Of a DNA stretch of 46,293 nt, positions 3,018 through 46,293 are shown in pieces. The notes under the pieces are model-generated. The model was given only the letters and a program-made list of their open reading frames with translations, made no database searches and had not been told where the DNA came from. Made by a program: the position numbers and the translations under genes. Numbering within the stretch: position 1 is the first letter of the stretch; each line of letters starts with the position of its first letter. This stretch comes from a virus (Duplodnaviria > Heunggongvirae > Uroviricota > Caudoviricetes), in the IMG/VR virus record IMGVR_UViG_2872164251_000001, one strand, 5' to 3'.

Positions 3018-3908
3018 TCAGGCTGCCAGATCATCGTTTCCGATGGAAGCATAATAAGCTTTTTCTGCTTCTGCCGGAGGGATGTGGCCCAGCCTTTCCA
3101 GCAATCGTCGATTGTTATACCAGTCCACCCACGTTAGTGTGGCCAGTTCCACTTCTGCACGGTTTTTCCAGCTCTTACGGTGTATTACCTCCGCTTTGTA
3201 AAGACCATTGATGCTCTCCGCCATCGCGTTGTCATACGAGTCGCCTGTACTTCCTGTTGATGCCAGTAATCCGGCTTCCTTAAGCCGCTGTGTGTAGGCC
3301 AGCGATACATACTGAGAACCTTTATCACTGTGATGGACCGTGCCGGACGGTCGACGGGCCCATAACGCCTGCTCCAGTGCATCCAGCACGAATGTCGTTT
3401 CCATGGACGATGAGACCCGCCACCCCACGATGTATCCGGCAAACACATCAATGATGAACGCCACATAGACGAAGCCCCTCCATGTGCTGACGTAAGTAAA
3501 ATCAGCCACCCACAGCTGGTCAGGTCGTTCTGCCACGAACTGACGGTTTACGCGGTCGCCTGCGGCAACGGCTTTCCGGCTGATGGTCGTACGGACCTTT
3601 TTACCCCGGAGAACACCGGCAAGTCCCATAACCGCCATGAGACGTGCCACAGTGCATCTGGCCACTCTGATACCTTCCCGTAACAACTGACGCCAGACTT
3701 TACGCACACCGTATACCTTGTGATTTTCATCGTATACGCGCTGTATCTCTTTCTTCAGCCAGTCATCGCGCTGCGCACGGGCACTGCGTTTATCCGGATG
3801 ATGTCGCTGTTGCTGACAGTGGTAATACGTTGACGGGGCAATATGCAGTTCGCTGCATAGCGGTCCGACCCCGTACTGCTCACGCAGCTTATCCAGCAGT
3901 GGCATCAT
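3018..3908 (-). CDS. IS629-like OrfB transposase
   Basis: 296-aa IS3-family DDE transposase ORF overlapping OrfA. Confidence 0.8.
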
Positions 3909-12729: not shown

Positions 12730-13233
12730 TTACTGATAGTGTTTTATGTTCAGATAATGCCCGATGACCTTGTCATGCAGCTCCACCGATTTTGAGAACG
12801 ACAGTGACTTCCGTCCCAGCCTTGCCAGATGTTGTCTCAGATTCAGATTATGTCGCTCAATGCGCTGAGTGTAACGCTTGCTGATAACGTGCAGCTTTCC
12901 CTTCAGGCGTGATTCATACAGCGGCCAGCCATCCGTCATCCATACCACGACCTCAAAGGCCGACAGCAGGCTCAGAAGACGCTCCAGTGTGGCCAGAGTG
13001 CGTTCACCGAAGACGTGCGCCACAACCGTCCTCCGTATCCTGTCATACGCGTAAAACAGCCAGCGCTGACGTGATTTAGCACCGACGTAGCCCCAATGTT
13101 CGTCCATTTCAGCGCAGACAATCACATCACTGCCCGGTTGTATGCGCGAGGTTACCGACTGCGGCCTGAGTTTTTTAAGTGACGTAAAACCGTGTTGAGG
13201 CCAACGCCCATAATGCGTGCGCTGGCGCGACAT
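12730..13233 (-). CDS. insB: IS1 InsB (expressed as InsAB' by frameshift)
   Basis: 167-aa ORF typical of IS1 InsB. Confidence 0.85.
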
Positions 13234-21779: not shown

Positions 21780-22775
21780 GTGACCGTGAGAGCACTACTG
21801 ACCCCTGAAATTGCCCCGCGTATGGGGATCGTATTGTTCAGACCAGGTTCAGAGCTGATGCCCCTGTTTATGCAGGGGCGTGTACTGCTGGAGCCTGAGC
21901 CGGAACGTTATTCATCTTTCGCCAGTGGTGCCGTTCCCGCGGCATCACAACCGCTGGCGGATGATCCTGCTGTTCGGGCCGTGTTCCGCAATGAGGCAGT
22001 GATCCGTCGTGCTGGTGGCGTGGAATGTCTTGAAAGCTGGCTACTTCGTGAAAAAGGCTGCCAGTGGCCTCATTCCGACTGGCACAGCGAGAACATGACC
22101 ACAATGCGACACGCTCCGGGCGCAATCCGTCTGTGCTGGCACTGTGATAACCAGCTGCGCGATCAGTTCACGGAACGGCTGGAATCAATGGCAACGGATA
22201 ACTGTGCCCGCTGGGTGTTGTCTGTTGTGCGTCGGGATCTCGGTTTTGATGATAGTCACGTTGTGACAATGCCGGAACTGTGCTGGTGGCTGATTCGTAA
22301 TGACCTGGCGGATGCCTTACCGGAAAGTGCAGCCCGTAAGGCACTGAGATTACCAAAGCCTGTTGTGCCGTCTGTCACCCGGGAAAGTGACCTTGTGCCT
22401 TCGGTTCCTGCCACCAGCATCATCCAAGATAAGGCAAAAAAGGTGCTGGCGCTGAAAGTGGATCCGGAGTCGCCGGAGTCTTTTATGTTACGCCCAAAAC
22501 GTCGCCGCTGGGTTAATGAGAAGTACACGCGCTGGGTTAAGACACAGCCGTGTGCATGTTGTGGAAAGCCCGCTGATGATCCCCACCACCTGATAGGCCA
22601 CGGTCAGGGGGGAATGGGTACAAAAGCGCATGACCTCTTTGTGTTGCCTTTGTGCAGAAAGCATCACGACGAGCTGCATGCGGATACCGTGGCATTTGAA
22701 GAGAAGTATGGCTCCCAGCTGGAGCTGATATTTCGTTTTATCGATCGTGCGCTGGCAATTGGCGTGCTGGCCTGA
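21780..22775 (+). CDS. DUF968-like nin-region protein with C-terminal HNH-like Cys/His motif
   Basis: C-terminal CACCGKPADDPHHL...LPLCRKHHDELH. Confidence 0.5.
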   Translation: MTVRALLTPEIAPRMGIVLFRPGSELMPLFMQGRVLLEPEPERYSSFASGAVPAASQPLADDPAVRAVFRNEAVIRRAGGVECLESWLLREKGCQWPHSDWHSENMTTMRHAPGAIRLCWHCDNQLRDQFTERLESMATDNCARWVLSVVRRDLGFDDSHVVTMPELCWWLIRNDLADALPESAARKALRLPKPVVPSVTRESDLVPSVPATSIIQDKAKKVLALKVDPESPESFMLRPKRRRWVNEKYTRWVKTQPCACCGKPADDPHHLIGHGQGGMGTKAHDLFVLPLCRKHHDELHADTVAFEEKYGSQLELIFRFIDRALAIGVLA

Positions 22776-22789
22776 TTTGGTGGAGAAAG

Positions 22790-23158
22790 TTGATGCGTGA
22801 TATTCAGATGGTTCTTGAGCGTTGGGGAGCATGGGCGGCGAGTGATAGTTCAGGCGTTGACTATTCACCTATAGCTGCTGGGTTTAAGGGACTTCTTCCC
22901 TATACCAGCAAGAAACGCTTGGCTTGTTCGGATAGTGATGCATTAATTATTGAAGGTTGTCTTGCTCGTCTAAAGCAAAAAAGACCTTATGAGCATTCGC
23001 TTCTTGTGGCACATTATTTATACAGAATATCCAAGCGTAAGATTGCAAAGGCGCGTGGAAAGGATGAGAAATTGATACGTATAGAAATACAGCTAGCCGA
23101 AGGATTTATTGATGGCTGCCTTTCCATGCTAGATCTAACATTAGATTTGGACGTTTAA
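22790..23158 (+). CDS. Late antiterminator Q (QuuD/phi82-like small Q)
   Basis: MRDIQMVLERWGAWAA... N-terminus as in DLP12 QuuD from memory. Confidence 0.7.
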   Translation: MMRDIQMVLERWGAWAASDSSGVDYSPIAAGFKGLLPYTSKKRLACSDSDALIIEGCLARLKQKRPYEHSLLVAHYLYRISKRKIAKARGKDEKLIRIEIQLAEGFIDGCLSMLDLTLDLDV

Positions 23159-23186
23159 TAATACGCCCCATGCAGGGGCGTATTAT
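23159..23186. terminator. Bidirectional hairpin between Q and the antisense KAP NTPase gene
   Basis: ATACGCCCC atgca GGGGCGTAT palindrome. Confidence 0.5.
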
Positions 23187-24518
23187 TTACTGGATGAATG
23201 ACATTTGATTAATATATTTTATCAATAACTCTCTGGGTGTAGTACTCCAAAAATTTAGGTGTTCATAATCAGTATAAACAGTGGTGAATTTTTTAAGTTC
23301 TTCATCACTTTTAGGGGCAAATCGCTCATTAAGAGTAATACTGTCTTTAATTATTCCGAAGAATACAATAGATATTTCAGGAATTTGCGATCTTCTCTCA
23401 TAAGAATAAGGTATTTCTTTTATGTTAAGCAGATCTGCTAAATGAGATATAGATTCTGCGGTAATTTCTTGTTTTAGTTTTTCCTTGTCACCAAAGCAAT
23501 GTATGAAGACAGCTACGACAAAGATCTTATTTATTAAAGGATCACTGCTTTTGTACTCATCGTCGTTTAATAGTTGAAAAATGTTAAGATTGCGTGAAAA
23601 AGTTTGTGTTTCACGTAAGGATAAGTTGGTTCGTTGAATTAAATCACGGATAAATCTACCAGATAACCTATTAATTTCATTTAATGATTTTGTCTTGTCT
23701 ACAAGGTAATTCCAATATATAACAGATGTTTTACATACGACGTGACCATTTATTAAACATGTGTCTGGAAGCGTGATGGTATATTTTATAAACTTGTCAA
23801 GATACTTTTGTGAGTTAATACTATAACCATAAATATGATTTATCGATGCTTTTAATTGTTCTGTGTTTGTAACTAAAATAAAAAAGACATTATTGATGTC
23901 AAAAATGTGTTTTATTGTTTCAATGACATTTGTTGAAAAACTCGGCTTACATCGGTCTAATTCATCAATTATAATTACTATCTTTTGACTTTCTGAAATG
24001 CTTTCGATGCAAGATTTAAGTGAATTTATGTTTTTCTCTGATTCCATATGGTCTTCAAGCAAATTTTCAATAGTCCCATCTATTGCTGCATTGCTTGCTT
24101 TCTTCATCGCATCTTGGAATTCTTCGGAAACTTCACTAGCCTCCTGTCGTAAAAACCAACCTGCACCAGCTTTTAGTACCGTTTTTAAACCAAAGCGAAT
24201 TGCAGGAAGAGATCTCTTAATGAAGTGTTGTTTTTCTTCCTCAGGTAAAATGCTGGCAATTGCAGAGGTTATGAGAAGTAATGGAGATTCTGCATGATCC
24301 CCTTTAAAGGCATCAATATAAACAACTTTAGATTCAGTTTCTTGCTCAATAATGAGATTTTTCAGTTTGATACTAAATTCTGTTTTCCCTGTTCCCCATG
24401 CGCCGTCTATTACCAGTGGTGAAATGTCTGCCTCTGGTTTTAGCAACTTGATGATATTTTCAGCGATGTTTCTGCGTTGGAACTCGTCACGTTCAGTGAA
24501 AGATAGTGTATCTAACAT
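23187..24518 (-). CDS. KAP-family P-loop NTPase (PifA-like), AT-rich moron
   Basis: Walker A GAWGTGKT, Walker B IIIDELDRC; 443 aa; much lower GC than flanks by eye; opposite strand to late operon. Confidence 0.75.
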   Translation of the reverse strand: MLDTLSFTERDEFQRRNIAENIIKLLKPEADISPLVIDGAWGTGKTEFSIKLKNLIIEQETESKVVYIDAFKGDHAESPLLLITSAIASILPEEEKQHFIKRSLPAIRFGLKTVLKAGAGWFLRQEASEVSEEFQDAMKKASNAAIDGTIENLLEDHMESEKNINSLKSCIESISESQKIVIIIDELDRCKPSFSTNVIETIKHIFDINNVFFILVTNTEQLKASINHIYGYSINSQKYLDKFIKYTITLPDTCLINGHVVCKTSVIYWNYLVDKTKSLNEINRLSGRFIRDLIQRTNLSLRETQTFSRNLNIFQLLNDDEYKSSDPLINKIFVVAVFIHCFGDKEKLKQEITAESISHLADLLNIKEIPYSYERRSQIPEISIVFFGIIKDSITLNERFAPKSDEELKKFTTVYTDYEHLNFWSTTPRELLIKYINQMSFIQ

Positions 24519-24580
24519 AATATAAACCTATTAACTCCTACAGTAAAAAACGAATAATACGACTTTGGGATTAAAAATCA

Positions 24581-24609
24581 TTAACGCGGTCCGCAAAAAT
24601 TCTTGTAAT
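24581..24609 (+). promoter_or_regulatory. Putative PR'-type late promoter for the lysis/structural operon
   Basis: TTAACG-17 bp-TGTAAT, followed about 35 bp later by a terminator hairpin. Confidence 0.4.
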
Positions 24610-24644
24610 CTGTTAAGAGTGGTTACTTCGCCACACAGCTTAAA

Positions 24645-24672
24645 CCCGCCGTCGAGCGGGTTTTGTCGTTTT
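24645..24672 (+). terminator. Putative tR' terminator (Q antitermination target)
   Basis: CCCGC cgtcga GCGGG followed by TTTTGTCGTTTTT. Confidence 0.5.
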
Positions 24673-24814
24673 TGTTGCTGGGGATTCGTTGGGCCTGGCC
24701 TATCCCGCAGTTATCCATTGGTTCGGCTCTTTGACGTTTCCGCTTCTGATTTGCGGTACATGATGTTCCCTCAATTTGCACCTGCTGTATCAGCGAGGTG
24801 AGAGATAACTACAA

Positions 24815-25141
24815 ATGCCTCATAACCCAAATACCTGGTTGGAGTTGGTCCAGAGCTGGTGGCGTGGAGACACACCGCTGGGCGCAGTGATTATGTCGAT
24901 TGTTATGGCTGGCTTGCGCATTGCATATTTTGGCGGTGGTGGGGGCTGGAAACGAAAAACGCTCGAGATTTTGCTCTGTGGTGCTCTGACGCTGACTTTT
25001 GCATCCGCTCTTGAGTATGTCGGATGGCCTAAATCTCTTTCTGTTGCCATTGGTGGCGGCGTTGGGCTAATCGGGGTCGATGCTATTCGTGGGGCTGCAA
25101 TGAGAGTAATCGGTAATAAGTTTGGTGGCTCTAAGGAGTAA
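24815..25141 (+). CDS. Putative holin (three predicted TM segments)
   Basis: Small hydrophobic protein immediately upstream of endolysin. Confidence 0.55.
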   Translation: MPHNPNTWLELVQSWWRGDTPLGAVIMSIVMAGLRIAYFGGGGGWKRKTLEILLCGALTLTFASALEYVGWPKSLSVAIGGGVGLIGVDAIRGAAMRVIGNKFGGSKE

Positions 25142-26237: not shown

Positions 26238-26792
26238 ATGAACGAAAATTATATTGCATATGAGACACTTGTAGCAAACCGTGCTGCTGCTGAGTGGGCT
26301 TGTTGGGCAATGATTGCATCTTGGGTGAGTGCTGGAGCTACTATTGTTACTTTGGTTTTGGCGTTCAAGGCATTGTTTACGTGGCGGGAACAAGAGAAAA
26401 CAAAAGTAAAAATAGATTTTAGGAATGCATTAAAGAAATTAAAGACAGCTCTATTATTTATGCCTGTCAATATTGACCCCGAGAAACTCAATGATGAACG
26501 AGAGCAAGTTATTGCGAAATGGCTATTTAAAGATGTAGATCTTATTAGTCAGCAAATTGAGTTGGGAGAAGAGAATGTTAAAAGATTTGATGAACTTTTG
26601 AGTATTTTCGATTGTTGCCAGTCTTCATGGTTTGCGACAGAGCACTTATTTGATAATACTGAGTTAGAAAAAGTTTGGCATGAGTTCGAGTCTAACTTTA
26701 ATAAATATATAAATGGTGGTGAGAGTAAGGATTTACTTATGAAAATGCTTGATAAGCTCATCTCTTCTAGATTTGTATTTGAGTCAAGATAA
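26238..26792 (+). CDS. Hypothetical membrane-anchored protein, AT-rich moron
   Basis: N-terminal TM WACWAMIASWVSAGATIVTLVLAF, GAGG RBS, imperfect palindrome CACTATTAACAGTG upstream. Confidence 0.55.
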   Translation: MNENYIAYETLVANRAAAEWACWAMIASWVSAGATIVTLVLAFKALFTWREQEKTKVKIDFRNALKKLKTALLFMPVNIDPEKLNDEREQVIAKWLFKDVDLISQQIELGEENVKRFDELLSIFDCCQSSWFATEHLFDNTELEKVWHEFESNFNKYINGGESKDLLMKMLDKLISSRFVFESR

Positions 26793-44166: not shown

Positions 44167-44817
44167 ATGCATCGTATAGACACGAAAACCGCGCAGAAGG
44201 ATAAGTTCGGCGCGGGTAAGAACGGTTTTACCCGTGGTAACCCCCAGACCGGCACACCTGCCACCGATCTGGATGATGACTACTTTGACATGTTGCAGGA
44301 GGAGCTTTGCAGCGTGGTGGAGGCATCCGGTGCCAGCCTGGAGAAGGGGCGGCATGACCAGCTGCTTACCGCGCTTCGTGCGCTGCTGTTAAGCCGCAAG
44401 AATCCGTTTGGCGATATCAAATCGGATGGCACTGTGCAAACGGCTCTCGAAAACCTTGGTTTGGGAGAAGCAGCTAAAAGGAATGTAGGTACAGGGGCGA
44501 ATCAGATACCTGATATGAGCCTGTTCGCGTCAATTAATACCGTAACGGCTGCTGCGCAAAAATTTCCGTCTGGATTAATTTTACAGTGCGGTCAGTTGAA
44601 TGGTGCCCCGAATGTATCTTCAACATACGGGATGAGGTTCCCGATGACGTTCTCAAGAGTCATTGCTGTCGTAGTTACATTGAACGTTACTGGCGCGGCT
44701 GGGCAGCCGACTGTATCGGCGACAAGTGTCCAGAACACTGGATTTAATATTACTGTGTCGCCCGGTTCAGGATACGGTTCATCTGCTGATGCGTATTACA
44801 TTGCAATGGGATATTAA
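44167..44817 (+). CDS. Tail fibre protein
   Basis: 216 aa immediately before tail fibre assembly gene. Confidence 0.55.
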
Positions 44818-44821
44818 CGAA

Positions 44822-45223
44822 ATGTCATATTTTTATTCTGCATCGACAAACGGATTTTATTCGACTGAATTTCACGGCACCAATATTCCTGATGATGCAG
44901 TGGAAATTTCGGAATCAGAGTGGAAAACACTGATTAATGCACAGAGTGTAACAAAAATGATTACCTGTGGTGAGAACGGTCATCCTGTCATTGTTGACCG
45001 TCCTTCTCCAACACCAGAACAATTAGCCTTAATAAATGATGAAAAGAAATCTGCACTGATAGCAGAGGCAACGAATGTAATAGCTCCGCTTCAGGATGCG
45101 GTTGATTTAGGTATGGCAACAGATGATGAAACGAAACTGTTACTGGCATGGAAAAAATATCGGGTGCTGCTTATGCGTGTTAATGTAGTAAAACCCGAGT
45201 GGCCTATGCATCCAAATAAATAG
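44822..45223 (+). CDS. Tail fibre assembly protein (Tfa)
   Basis: MSYFYSASTNGFYSTEFHG... typical Tfa N-terminus. Confidence 0.75.
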   Translation: MSYFYSASTNGFYSTEFHGTNIPDDAVEISESEWKTLINAQSVTKMITCGENGHPVIVDRPSPTPEQLALINDEKKSALIAEATNVIAPLQDAVDLGMATDDETKLLLAWKKYRVLLMRVNVVKPEWPMHPNK

Positions 45224-45966
45224 ACTTGTTAATCTAGGATAATTGTTGGAATAATACTCATTTTTCAGTAGGTTCAGGTAGCCTGGGTATAATGCTCACT
45301 TCTACAATGATTTCAACTTATTTTATTTAATTGATATTACGAAACTTAACTCATACATAAACAATATGACTCAATACTGTCCTAAATAGCTGCGCAGAAA
45401 AGTGCTCCACTTTCGCTCAGCCCTTGCTGGGCGAAGCATCAGGAAGGCGTTCTCAGCTAGGTTGTGTTATATCTGGCTTGAGTTTTGTTGCCCATACGCA
45501 ACACATTACCCATCTGTAAACGACAAGTGTGACAGAATTAGGTGCAGCTATTTAGACTATATCGACGCAGTAACGATAATAGATATCGAAACTGTACTAG
45601 ATATTAGCTACTTATGGTTACCGGGGGGAGTCTTTTGAGCACTGGTGTTATCAATCGGCTTCAAATAATTCACCAATAAATTATATTGCGATAGCTCATC
45701 ACCTTCCAGGTTGTTTATAGCCAGTTTATCAGCGTCACCACCTACTGTTTATGCTTTTATTTCTTTGATTAATGAGTATATGATATTTTAATTCATCTGG
45801 TGTATTTCTTTCTCATGTGTTGGCCGACTGAATATCTGTTCAGTGAAGGGGTAATTTTATGTTTGCACTTCGAACATTCCCTTCAGTTGCCAAGAAAGAA
45901 AACCGTAACATTTGCGCATTAATTTTAACAGTATAATCTGAGCATAAATATGCGCTATATATCTAT

Positions 45967-45994
45967 AAAAAGGCGCAATTAATTGCGCCTTTTT
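45967..45994. terminator. Bidirectional rho-independent terminator
   Basis: AGGCGCAATTAATTGCGCCT perfect hairpin flanked by A-run and T-run. Confidence 0.7.
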
Positions 45995-45995
45995 A

Positions 45996-46293
45996 TCATT
46001 TTATCAAAAATGGCCCACCGACTGTCCTCGATAGCCAATGGCCAATTTTATCTGATACATATACACAAATACAGGTATATATGATTGCGCAGATAGGATT
46101 TGGAATGGTCACGCTGAAGCCTATGATTGCTAAAGCCATAGGGATAAATAATTTGGTGATATACTCCATTCCACATATGTTAAGAGTATTTCTTCCAGCT
46201 CTTACAATAAAGTCATTCCCACAAATTATTTTTGCTATAAAAATATTAAATATTATCAAGCCTACCGTGGTGATAATAGTATTAATAGCTTGA
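45996..46293 (-). CDS. C-terminal part of an integral membrane protein (gene continues beyond window); possible O-antigen-modification gene
   Basis: Frame open to window edge, hydrophobic, AT-rich; position distal to tail fibre genes. Confidence 0.4.
   Translation of the reverse strand, partial: QAINTIITTVGLIIFNIFIAKIICGNDFIVRAGRNTLNICGMEYITKLFIPMALAIIGFSVTIPNPICAIIYTCICVYVSDKIGHWLSRTVGGPFLIK

Follow-up and report, generated by a model that had tools for sequence, protein, structure and literature searches.

A KAP-family NTPase gene in a variable slot between antiterminator Q and the late promoter region of a lambdoid prophage, a probable anti-phage defence gene

Why does an AT-rich ATPase gene lie on the opposite strand between the antiterminator gene Q and the late promoter region of a lambdoid prophage? 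This question is raised by a 46,293-nucleotide stretch of caudoviricete DNA (IMG/VR record IMGVR_UViG_2872164251_000001, hereafter the window), in which a gene for a 443-residue P-loop NTPase of the KAP family occupies positions 23187..24518 of the minus strand. We conclude that the prophage gained the gene by horizontal transfer as cargo (a 'moron'), in a slot of variable content bounded by Q and the Q-dependent late promoter, and that the gene most likely, with a probability of roughly 0.65, encodes a single-protein defence of the lysogen against other phages. This role is favoured by a full-length match to the defence-candidate family PDC-S20 together with the genomic context; by the variability of the slot, which elsewhere contains a defence-type nuclease; by relatives found in cargo slots of prophages and satellites and in a type I restriction-modification (R-M) operon; by the combination of a conserved core with a variable C-terminus; and by the experimentally observed anti-phage activity of KAP NTPases (PMC12632615).

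The original prediction, whose range (23159-24672) extended over the KAP open reading frame (ORF), the hairpin beside it and the promoter/terminator block of the late operon, had described a 443-residue protein with Walker A and Walker B motifs and had placed it in the KAP family; both statements hold. Residues 15-317 match the Pfam domain KAP_NTPase (PF07693) over profile positions 1-292 of 293, with E=7.2e-70 and 236 bits against a cut-off of 20, while residues 3-442 match the PADLOC model PDLC04956 of PDC-S20 over positions 4-449 of 450 (E=1.5e-176). The RefSeq name of the product is 'KAP family NTPase', and in PHROGs it belongs to phrog_8614. Walker A (GAWGTGKT) lies at residues 39-46 (24381..24404, minus strand) and Walker B (IIIDELDRC) at residues 182-190 (23949..23975, minus strand); G39, W41, G42, T43, G44 and K45 of the former and D185, E186, L187, D188, R189 and C190 of the latter are invariant across 30 family members. 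The profile E-values, together with 50 conserved copies among 5,426 complete Escherichia coli genomes in which the same arrangement recurs, rule out a chance ORF. No transmembrane segment is predicted (the best 19-residue Kyte-Doolittle mean is 1.35), and a Tmn/YobI-like or classical membrane-KAP reading was rejected for this reason. Although transmembrane helices are typical of the KAP family, some of its proteins, PifA among them, do without; since the feature is not universal, their lack does not exclude membership. The protein contains no nuclease, protease, TIR or pore domain and no secretion signal, and a sequence search of the PDB gave no match at E<=1. It is predicted to be a soluble, stand-alone KAP-family ATPase of ~445 residues.

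The gene differs sharply in composition from its surroundings, as had been anticipated: its G+C content (GC) is 0.328, and 0.268 at third codon positions (GC3), against a window mean of 0.509 and values of 0.42-0.57 for the adjoining genes, which makes it the deepest GC trough of the 46-kb window. Its neighbours also agree with the original prediction. The gene is convergent with Q on its left, antisense to all phage operons, and followed on its right by a PR'-type block that precedes the holin gene. Comparison with collinear relatives (phages 1720a-02, cdtI and PhiR40_1 and the E. coli LT2-3 and APEC O78 loci; L numbers below denote the compared loci) defines this interval as a slot. In the Shiga toxin (Stx) phage 1720a-02 the slot is empty and the Q stop codon is directly followed by a block that matches 24573-24664 with 89% identity. 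Because the late block of 1720a-02 adjoins the Q stop, the interval from ~23119/23135 to ~24572/24584 is an insertion relative to that phage. In the other collinear relatives the slot is filled by different genes, always antisense to Q: a pair of genes for 147/149 and 313 (DUF6731) residues in phage cdtI (L005, 2980-4368) and in APEC O78 (L020, 795-2207), a 148-residue gene in PhiR40_1 (L006, 3044-3490), and a 248-residue gene in LT2-3 (L019, 807-1553). The LT2-3 protein resembles defence nucleases in its N-terminus (PDC-M68A, 7.5e-27; CBASS endonuclease effector, 4.8e-21; Shedu SduA, 4.7e-8). The cargo of cdtI, APEC O78 and PhiR40_1 has no PADLOC match, so that the label 'defence hotspot' rests on two of ~5 cargo types; these genes could be uncharacterised defence genes. 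As insertion scars, no convincing flanking direct repeats were found, a 14-nt pair (23133/24510) of 86% identity being probably due to chance, and no tRNA gene was found in the window. The gene shows the marks of a moron, namely presence, absence or replacement among collinear relatives, atypical composition and an accompanying hairpin.

The borders of the slot are well delimited. On the left, the Q gene (22790..23158, plus strand) encodes 122 residues with a Phage_antitermQ domain (PF06530, E=2.3e-51; phrog_79) and has GC 0.423 and GC3 0.333. Its 3' end is mosaic, the match to the window stopping at 22839 in PhiR40_1, 23134 in cdtI and 23118 in 1720a-02, and Q alleles and the adjoining cargo were possibly swapped together. 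The terminator hairpin attributed to the KAP gene is present at 23157..23187 as a palindrome (AATAATACGCCCC / GGGGCGTATTATT) with a perfect 13-bp stem and a 5-nt loop; its folding energy (dG) is -21.5/-21.4 kcal/mol with z=-5.2/-6.5 on the two strands. It overlaps the stop codons of both Q and KAP and is presumed to be a bidirectional terminator of these convergent genes. A hairpin with a GC core is found at the Q/cargo junction in each lineage in its own version. The loop reads ATGCA in the window (23170-23174), L001 and L002, and TGCAT in L003 (5011-5015), with identical stems; the two loops are reverse complements of each other, which looks like a flipped palindrome centre.

On the right, the block at 24573..24664 (plus strand), delimited by alignment to relatives, is by its position the late promoter region of the PR'/tR' type, with exact -35/-10 hexamers not fixed. 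It comprises the near-palindrome GCGGTCCGC (24586-24594, plus strand), the invariant TGTTAAGAGTGGTTACTT (24611-24628, plus strand) and a terminator-like hairpin detected by the terminator scan (24642-24663, plus strand), followed by a T-run (to 24673). The first two elements are kept beside the same Q type in Escherichia, Citrobacter, Cronobacter and Stx phage 1720a-02, and in L007/L009 and L015/L017 they lie ~60-90 nt upstream of the KAP start; they are candidate Q-binding/PR' elements. By analogy, termination at the 24642-24663 hairpin would yield a short transcript that corresponds to the terminated PR' RNA; a search of Rfam gave no match within 22700-25000 at E<=1. Back-to-back with the late block lies the AT-rich upstream region of KAP (24519..24584, minus strand), with TATTAT and other -10-like hexamers. 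Since no other minus-strand gene to the right of KAP could supply transcription, this region must hold its own promoter. The spaces that separate Q, KAP and PR' are too small for a partner ORF, which bears out the description of KAP as a single gene. The late operon begins with a lambda-family holin gene (24815..25141, plus strand; Phage_holin_3_1, E=5.7e-25), downstream of which are lysozyme and Rz-like genes.

The position of the gene would suit a role in the life cycle of the prophage itself, for instance an influence on Q-dependent late transcription, on when lysis occurs, or on replication or packaging. Such a role could explain why KAP genes are linked to the same Q type across genera, down to 45% protein identity, and why the KAP start lies ~55-75 bp from the late-promoter element GCGGTCCGC; moreover, the predicted fold is as similar to initiators of the Orc/Cdc6/DnaA type as to RdrA. 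Against this, relatives with the same Q, late block and lysis genes either lack KAP or carry unrelated genes in its place, and the gene is compositionally foreign and antisense to every phage operon. The family is also found in settings that have neither Q nor a late operon, namely the cI-int interval of 186-like prophages, a P4-like island and an R-M operon. Because of the collinear relatives without the gene and of these family members without Q or a late operon, we give a life-cycle role hardly any credence.

The defence role draws much of its support from the distribution of the gene and its family. The KAP copies in the 50 E. coli genomes share 96.8-99.9% nucleotide identity, the Q-KAP-holin arrangement is whole in 50 of 50, and the ORF is intact and of the same length in every copy examined. 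An exhaustive search for homologues (E<=1e-30) yielded 269 clusters at 50% identity, and the fact that nearly all of them measure 435-475 residues indicates a fixed, stand-alone architecture. Homologues from Citrobacter (65% identity) and Cronobacter (45% identity) occupy the same Q-convergent slot with a different lysis cassette downstream. In 186/P2-like prophages, E. coli and Yersinia homologues (44-47% identity) are located between the CI repressor and integrase genes on the same strand as both; we take this cI-int position, by analogy with phage 186, to be part of the lysogenic transcription unit. An Enterobacter homologue (P0106, 46% identity) belongs to a P4-like island, where it stands beside primase/Toprim and AAA_25 genes and near an nSTAND3-AAA and S8-peptidase pair. 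Another, P0118 (~38% identity), lies inside a type I R-M operon of the order HsdM-HsdS-DUF4357-KAP-HsdR.

No partner gene conserved across these settings was seen. In the 186-like prophages a small lineage-specific ORF lies between cI and the KAP homologue (L011, 7804-7989; L021/L022, 6494-6976), encoding a 61-residue YdcA-like product in E. coli and 160 residues in Yersinia, and the DUF4357 gene precedes the R-M-embedded copy; none of these preceding ORFs is kept across contexts. The Citrobacter-type prophage with the 65% homologue also carries, at 12240-17258 of L009, a colicin-domain gene, a GIY-YIG gene and a pair of SLATT_5 and reverse-transcriptase genes, so that with its KAP homologue this one prophage holds several defence-like cargo genes.

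The same distribution bears on the possibility that the gene is lysogenic-conversion cargo unrelated to phages, that is, a signalling or scaffolding ATPase for host physiology, stress tolerance or virulence, whose spread would reflect host benefit or hitch-hiking. Pathogens such as enterotoxigenic E. coli (ETEC) H10407 are among the carriers, and the Q-to-lysis region of lambdoid phages also bears virulence cargo such as stx (L004). However, carrier strains come from humans, animals, river water and soil alike, the product is a cytoplasmic ATPase with neither secretion signal nor membrane segment, and over its full length it belongs to a family of defence candidates, with relatives that lie inside a type I R-M operon or in defence-type slots of P4-like and 186-like elements. 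We therefore consider conversion cargo of this kind distinctly unlikely.

The protein itself is divided into a conserved and a variable part. Mean identity of homologues to the query is 0.56-0.71 over residues 1-250 and 0.24-0.38 over residues 251-443, and the alignment of remote homologues usually stops near residue 350. The conserved part includes a helical insert between Walker A and Walker B (residues 93-177; 23988..24242, minus strand), delimited by conservation across homologues, which occupies the place of the membrane helices in classical KAP proteins and is not hydrophobic enough for a transmembrane segment; P105, K116 and W121 are among its conserved residues. Within it, residues 97-116 form a cationic amphipathic stretch with a hydrophobic moment (muH) of ~0.55 and a net charge of +4/+5, a modest signal that we regard as a weak hint. 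In the predicted structure the local confidence score pLDDT is <50 at residues 113-156. The variable C-terminal half (residues 251-443; 23190..23768, minus strand) consists of a small beta element and an all-helical region. Among close alleles, this half accounts for 12 of 14, 15 of 19 and 25 of 37 amino-acid changes in three comparisons, with 18 of the 25 falling in residues 251-330, while the NTPase core shows ratios of synonymous to non-synonymous changes of 9:2 and 9:4. This clustering hints at a specificity surface, which is only suggestive because the numbers are small; the C-terminal half is accordingly put forward here as a proposed specificity or sensor part.

If the gene serves in defence, we envisage that its own promoter drives transcription in the lysogen and that the protein idles as an inactive monomer until its variable half detects a protein made by a phage. 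Binding and hydrolysis of ATP in the conserved core would then drive ring assembly, as for RdrA, and the assembled form would block phage development. The insert at residues 93-177 would be the most likely output or oligomerisation element. As the protein has no enzymatic effector domain, its output would probably be to sequester or remodel a phage or host factor at the expense of ATP, to consume nucleotides, or to exert a PifA-like membrane effect; nothing in the present evidence favours either abortive infection or exclusion. The antisense placement behind Q may additionally let early read-through dampen KAP at prophage induction. Such self-dampening, conceived by analogy, is speculative because KAP lies upstream of PR' and only early transcripts that pass the hairpin could oppose it. 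In a more elaborate form of this scheme, the protein would be a minimal, effector-less KAP immune ATPase in which the insert, a soluble descendant of the KAP membrane insert, provides the output and the C-terminal half a swappable sensor, and the Q-PR' interval would be a dedicated antisense immunity slot that is turned off at induction; taken together, these propositions are tentative and rather doubtful.

Several observations weigh against a defence role. The protein has no recognisable effector domain. PDC-S20 is a computational candidate only, and the PDC set was itself introduced as '145 untested phage defence candidates' (10.1101/2024.01.29.577857). No promoter could be called with confidence in 24519-24584, where the number of sites from a consensus scan did not exceed that in shuffled sequence, and manual inspection gave a -35/-10 spacing that is inconsistent across lineages. 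In its predicted fold the protein is similar to RdrA, the ring-forming ATPase of RADAR, with a template-modelling score of ~0.4, a moderate likeness common to generic AAA+/Orc proteins. Unlike the situation at phi80 tai, late transcription runs away from KAP, and any dampening needs passage through a strong hairpin. A close copy of the gene was found in none of 50,697 phage records. The prophage carries two IS3-family (rve) transposase ORFs near its integrase end (1040-1879 and 3018-3908, both minus strand) and an IS1 transposase gene in the early region (12730-13233, minus strand), and because of these insertions this copy may be defective. At 31-33% GC the gene is also, we assume, a possible target of H-NS silencing in E. 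coli.

Very low GC, the lack of a confident promoter, the IS1 and IS3-family insertions and the absence from isolated phages are likewise what one would expect if the gene were inert cargo, its ORF intact but kept silent (by H-NS, for instance) or decaying in a defective prophage. This explanation is hard to reconcile with an ORF that has kept its length through all copies examined at 96.8-99.9% identity in 50 genomes, with the excess of synonymous over amino-acid changes in the core, with catalytic motifs invariant in 30 diverged homologues, or with the narrow length range of the 269 clusters. We regard inert cargo as highly improbable and retain defence of the lysogen as the preferred role.

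Other parts of the prophage show further variable content. A second AT-rich cargo gene of 184 codons lies between Rz/Rz1 and HNH/terminase (26238-26792, plus strand; GC 0.355, GC3 0.314). Its product (phrog_6169) has two N-terminal hydrophobic helices and weak matches only, to SLATT_1 (E=0.0044) and CARF_TM (E=0.017). The corresponding position contains a ClpP-like gene and a hypothetical gene (antisense) in M7424, and DUF6979 and KilA-N genes (the latter pair with a weak PDC-S22 match) in CFSAN064035; this post-lysis position forms a second slot of variable content beside the lysis cassette. Past the gene for tail-fibre assembly (44726-45223), GC drops to 0.375 in 45000-46293; only short ORFs are found there, and this region may represent additional cargo or the end of the prophage. 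PADLOC gave no match for ten other ORFs of the window.

It is twenty years since KAP NTPases were suggested to be conflict proteins, and the exclusion of T7 by PifA has been textbook knowledge for longer, yet we know of no mechanism for any KAP NTPase, PifA included. A compact, soluble, single-gene KAP protein in E. coli prophages would ease the search for the trigger, the oligomeric state and the output, and, if the minimal-ATPase scheme were true, would offer the simplest tractable model of how PifA-type KAP NTPases stop phages. The RefSeq KAP annotation and the existence of the candidate family PDC-S20 are already known. What makes this locus valuable is that a tractable host carries a minimal, soluble KAP protein, that the swappable slot is clearly delimited and that the contextual support is unusually broad. 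The antisense slot between Q and the late promoter, documented here, is located just upstream of the stx position in Stx phages, and both it and the post-lysis slot offer places to look for additional defence genes. Cargo of this kind adds to strain-specific phage resistance, a point of relevance to phage therapy and typing.

Comparison with known systems places the protein closest to PDC-S20, with which it agrees in full length and in being encoded by a single gene; nothing structural differs. The prediction of PDC systems started from genes that lie inside BREX, DISARM and type I R-M loci (Payne et al., 10.1101/2024.01.29.577857). As embedding in defence loci is the basis of that proposal, it is fitted by the homologue P0118 in its R-M operon, and P0106 likewise lies near a defence-type pair, nSTAND3-AAA and S8. 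Our literature search found no paper that names PDC-S20 and no text on it in the supplement of Payne et al. Searches by the RefSeq accessions and locus tags of the KAP gene found nothing, those for a KAP gene beside a prophage antiterminator returned only name collisions, and a description of the Q-PR' location was not found.

PifA of the F plasmid, the founder of the KAP family, excludes phage T7 and is triggered by T7 gp1.2 and gp10. The original prediction had linked the gene to PifA, and the link stands for the NTPase domain and fails for the protein as a whole. Both proteins have the KAP P-loop core with Walker A and B motifs, and both are single proteins on mobile elements that presumably sense phage proteins; only residues 7-252 of the KAP protein align, to positions 13-255 of the 720 in the PADLOC PifA profile (E=1e-17), and tblastn against PifA-like plasmid genes gave 24.8% identity over residues 11-251. 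The C-terminal two-thirds of PifA, which has ~720 residues, have no counterpart, and PifA sits in the plasmid pif operon whereas the KAP gene sits in a prophage slot. A true PifA analogue would act by membrane-associated abortive infection, in which phage proteins trigger depolarisation, nucleotide leakage and cell death; T7 exclusion with depolarisation and leakage is the account of PifA summarised in PMC13001434, which also describes PifA as free of transmembrane helices. The shared domain, the common lack of such helices and the cationic amphipathic residues 97-116, placed where other KAP proteins have membrane helices, speak for such an analogue, but the likeness is confined to the N-terminal ~250 residues at ~25% identity, the amphipathic signal is modest, and the single-gene KAP protein EF_KAP does not behave like an abortive-infection system (PMC12632615). 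We judge true PifA analogy unlikely.

QatA of the QatABCD system likewise has an ATPase core of the KAP type (E=6e-12 for the PADLOC model, E=5.5e-9 for that of NCBIfam), but the KAP protein reaches only 35 bits against the 600-bit NCBIfam cut-off, with residues 124-256 aligned, and its neighbours are Q and holin, with no QatB, QatC or QatD at the locus. RdrA of RADAR (PDB 8fnt, 8fnu and 8hr8) is a ring-forming protein of ~800-850 residues that works with the RdrB deaminase. In comparison, the KAP protein is about half as long, has no partner gene and resembles RdrA in fold only; PADLOC gave no RdrA match at E<=1, and no deaminase gene was found near KAP. Orthology to PifA, QatA or RdrA was rejected on these partial or absent profile matches.

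The experimentally supported counterparts are EF_KAP and related Enterococcus proteins, which, like the KAP protein, combine in a single gene a KAP core and a C-terminal region without known domain. Their phage protection depends on Walker B and, as noted for EF_KAP, is not abortive-infection-like (PMC12632615). EF_KAP differs in that its N-terminus carries two transmembrane helices and its C-terminus an 'effector' region of 322 residues, neither of which is found in the KAP protein with its ~190 variable residues after the core; the two proteins are set side by side here by description. For the layout of the locus, the closest precedent is Tai of phi80, a prophage defence gene antisense within the Q-controlled region; the lysogen expresses it, and expression of Q lowers its level (PMC11364771). 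Tai thus offers a model both for the antisense arrangement and for self-dampening by opposing transcription. It is an unrelated protein encoded downstream of PR' inside the late operon together with an anti-Tai partner, whereas the KAP gene stands upstream of PR', convergent with Q and without a partner.

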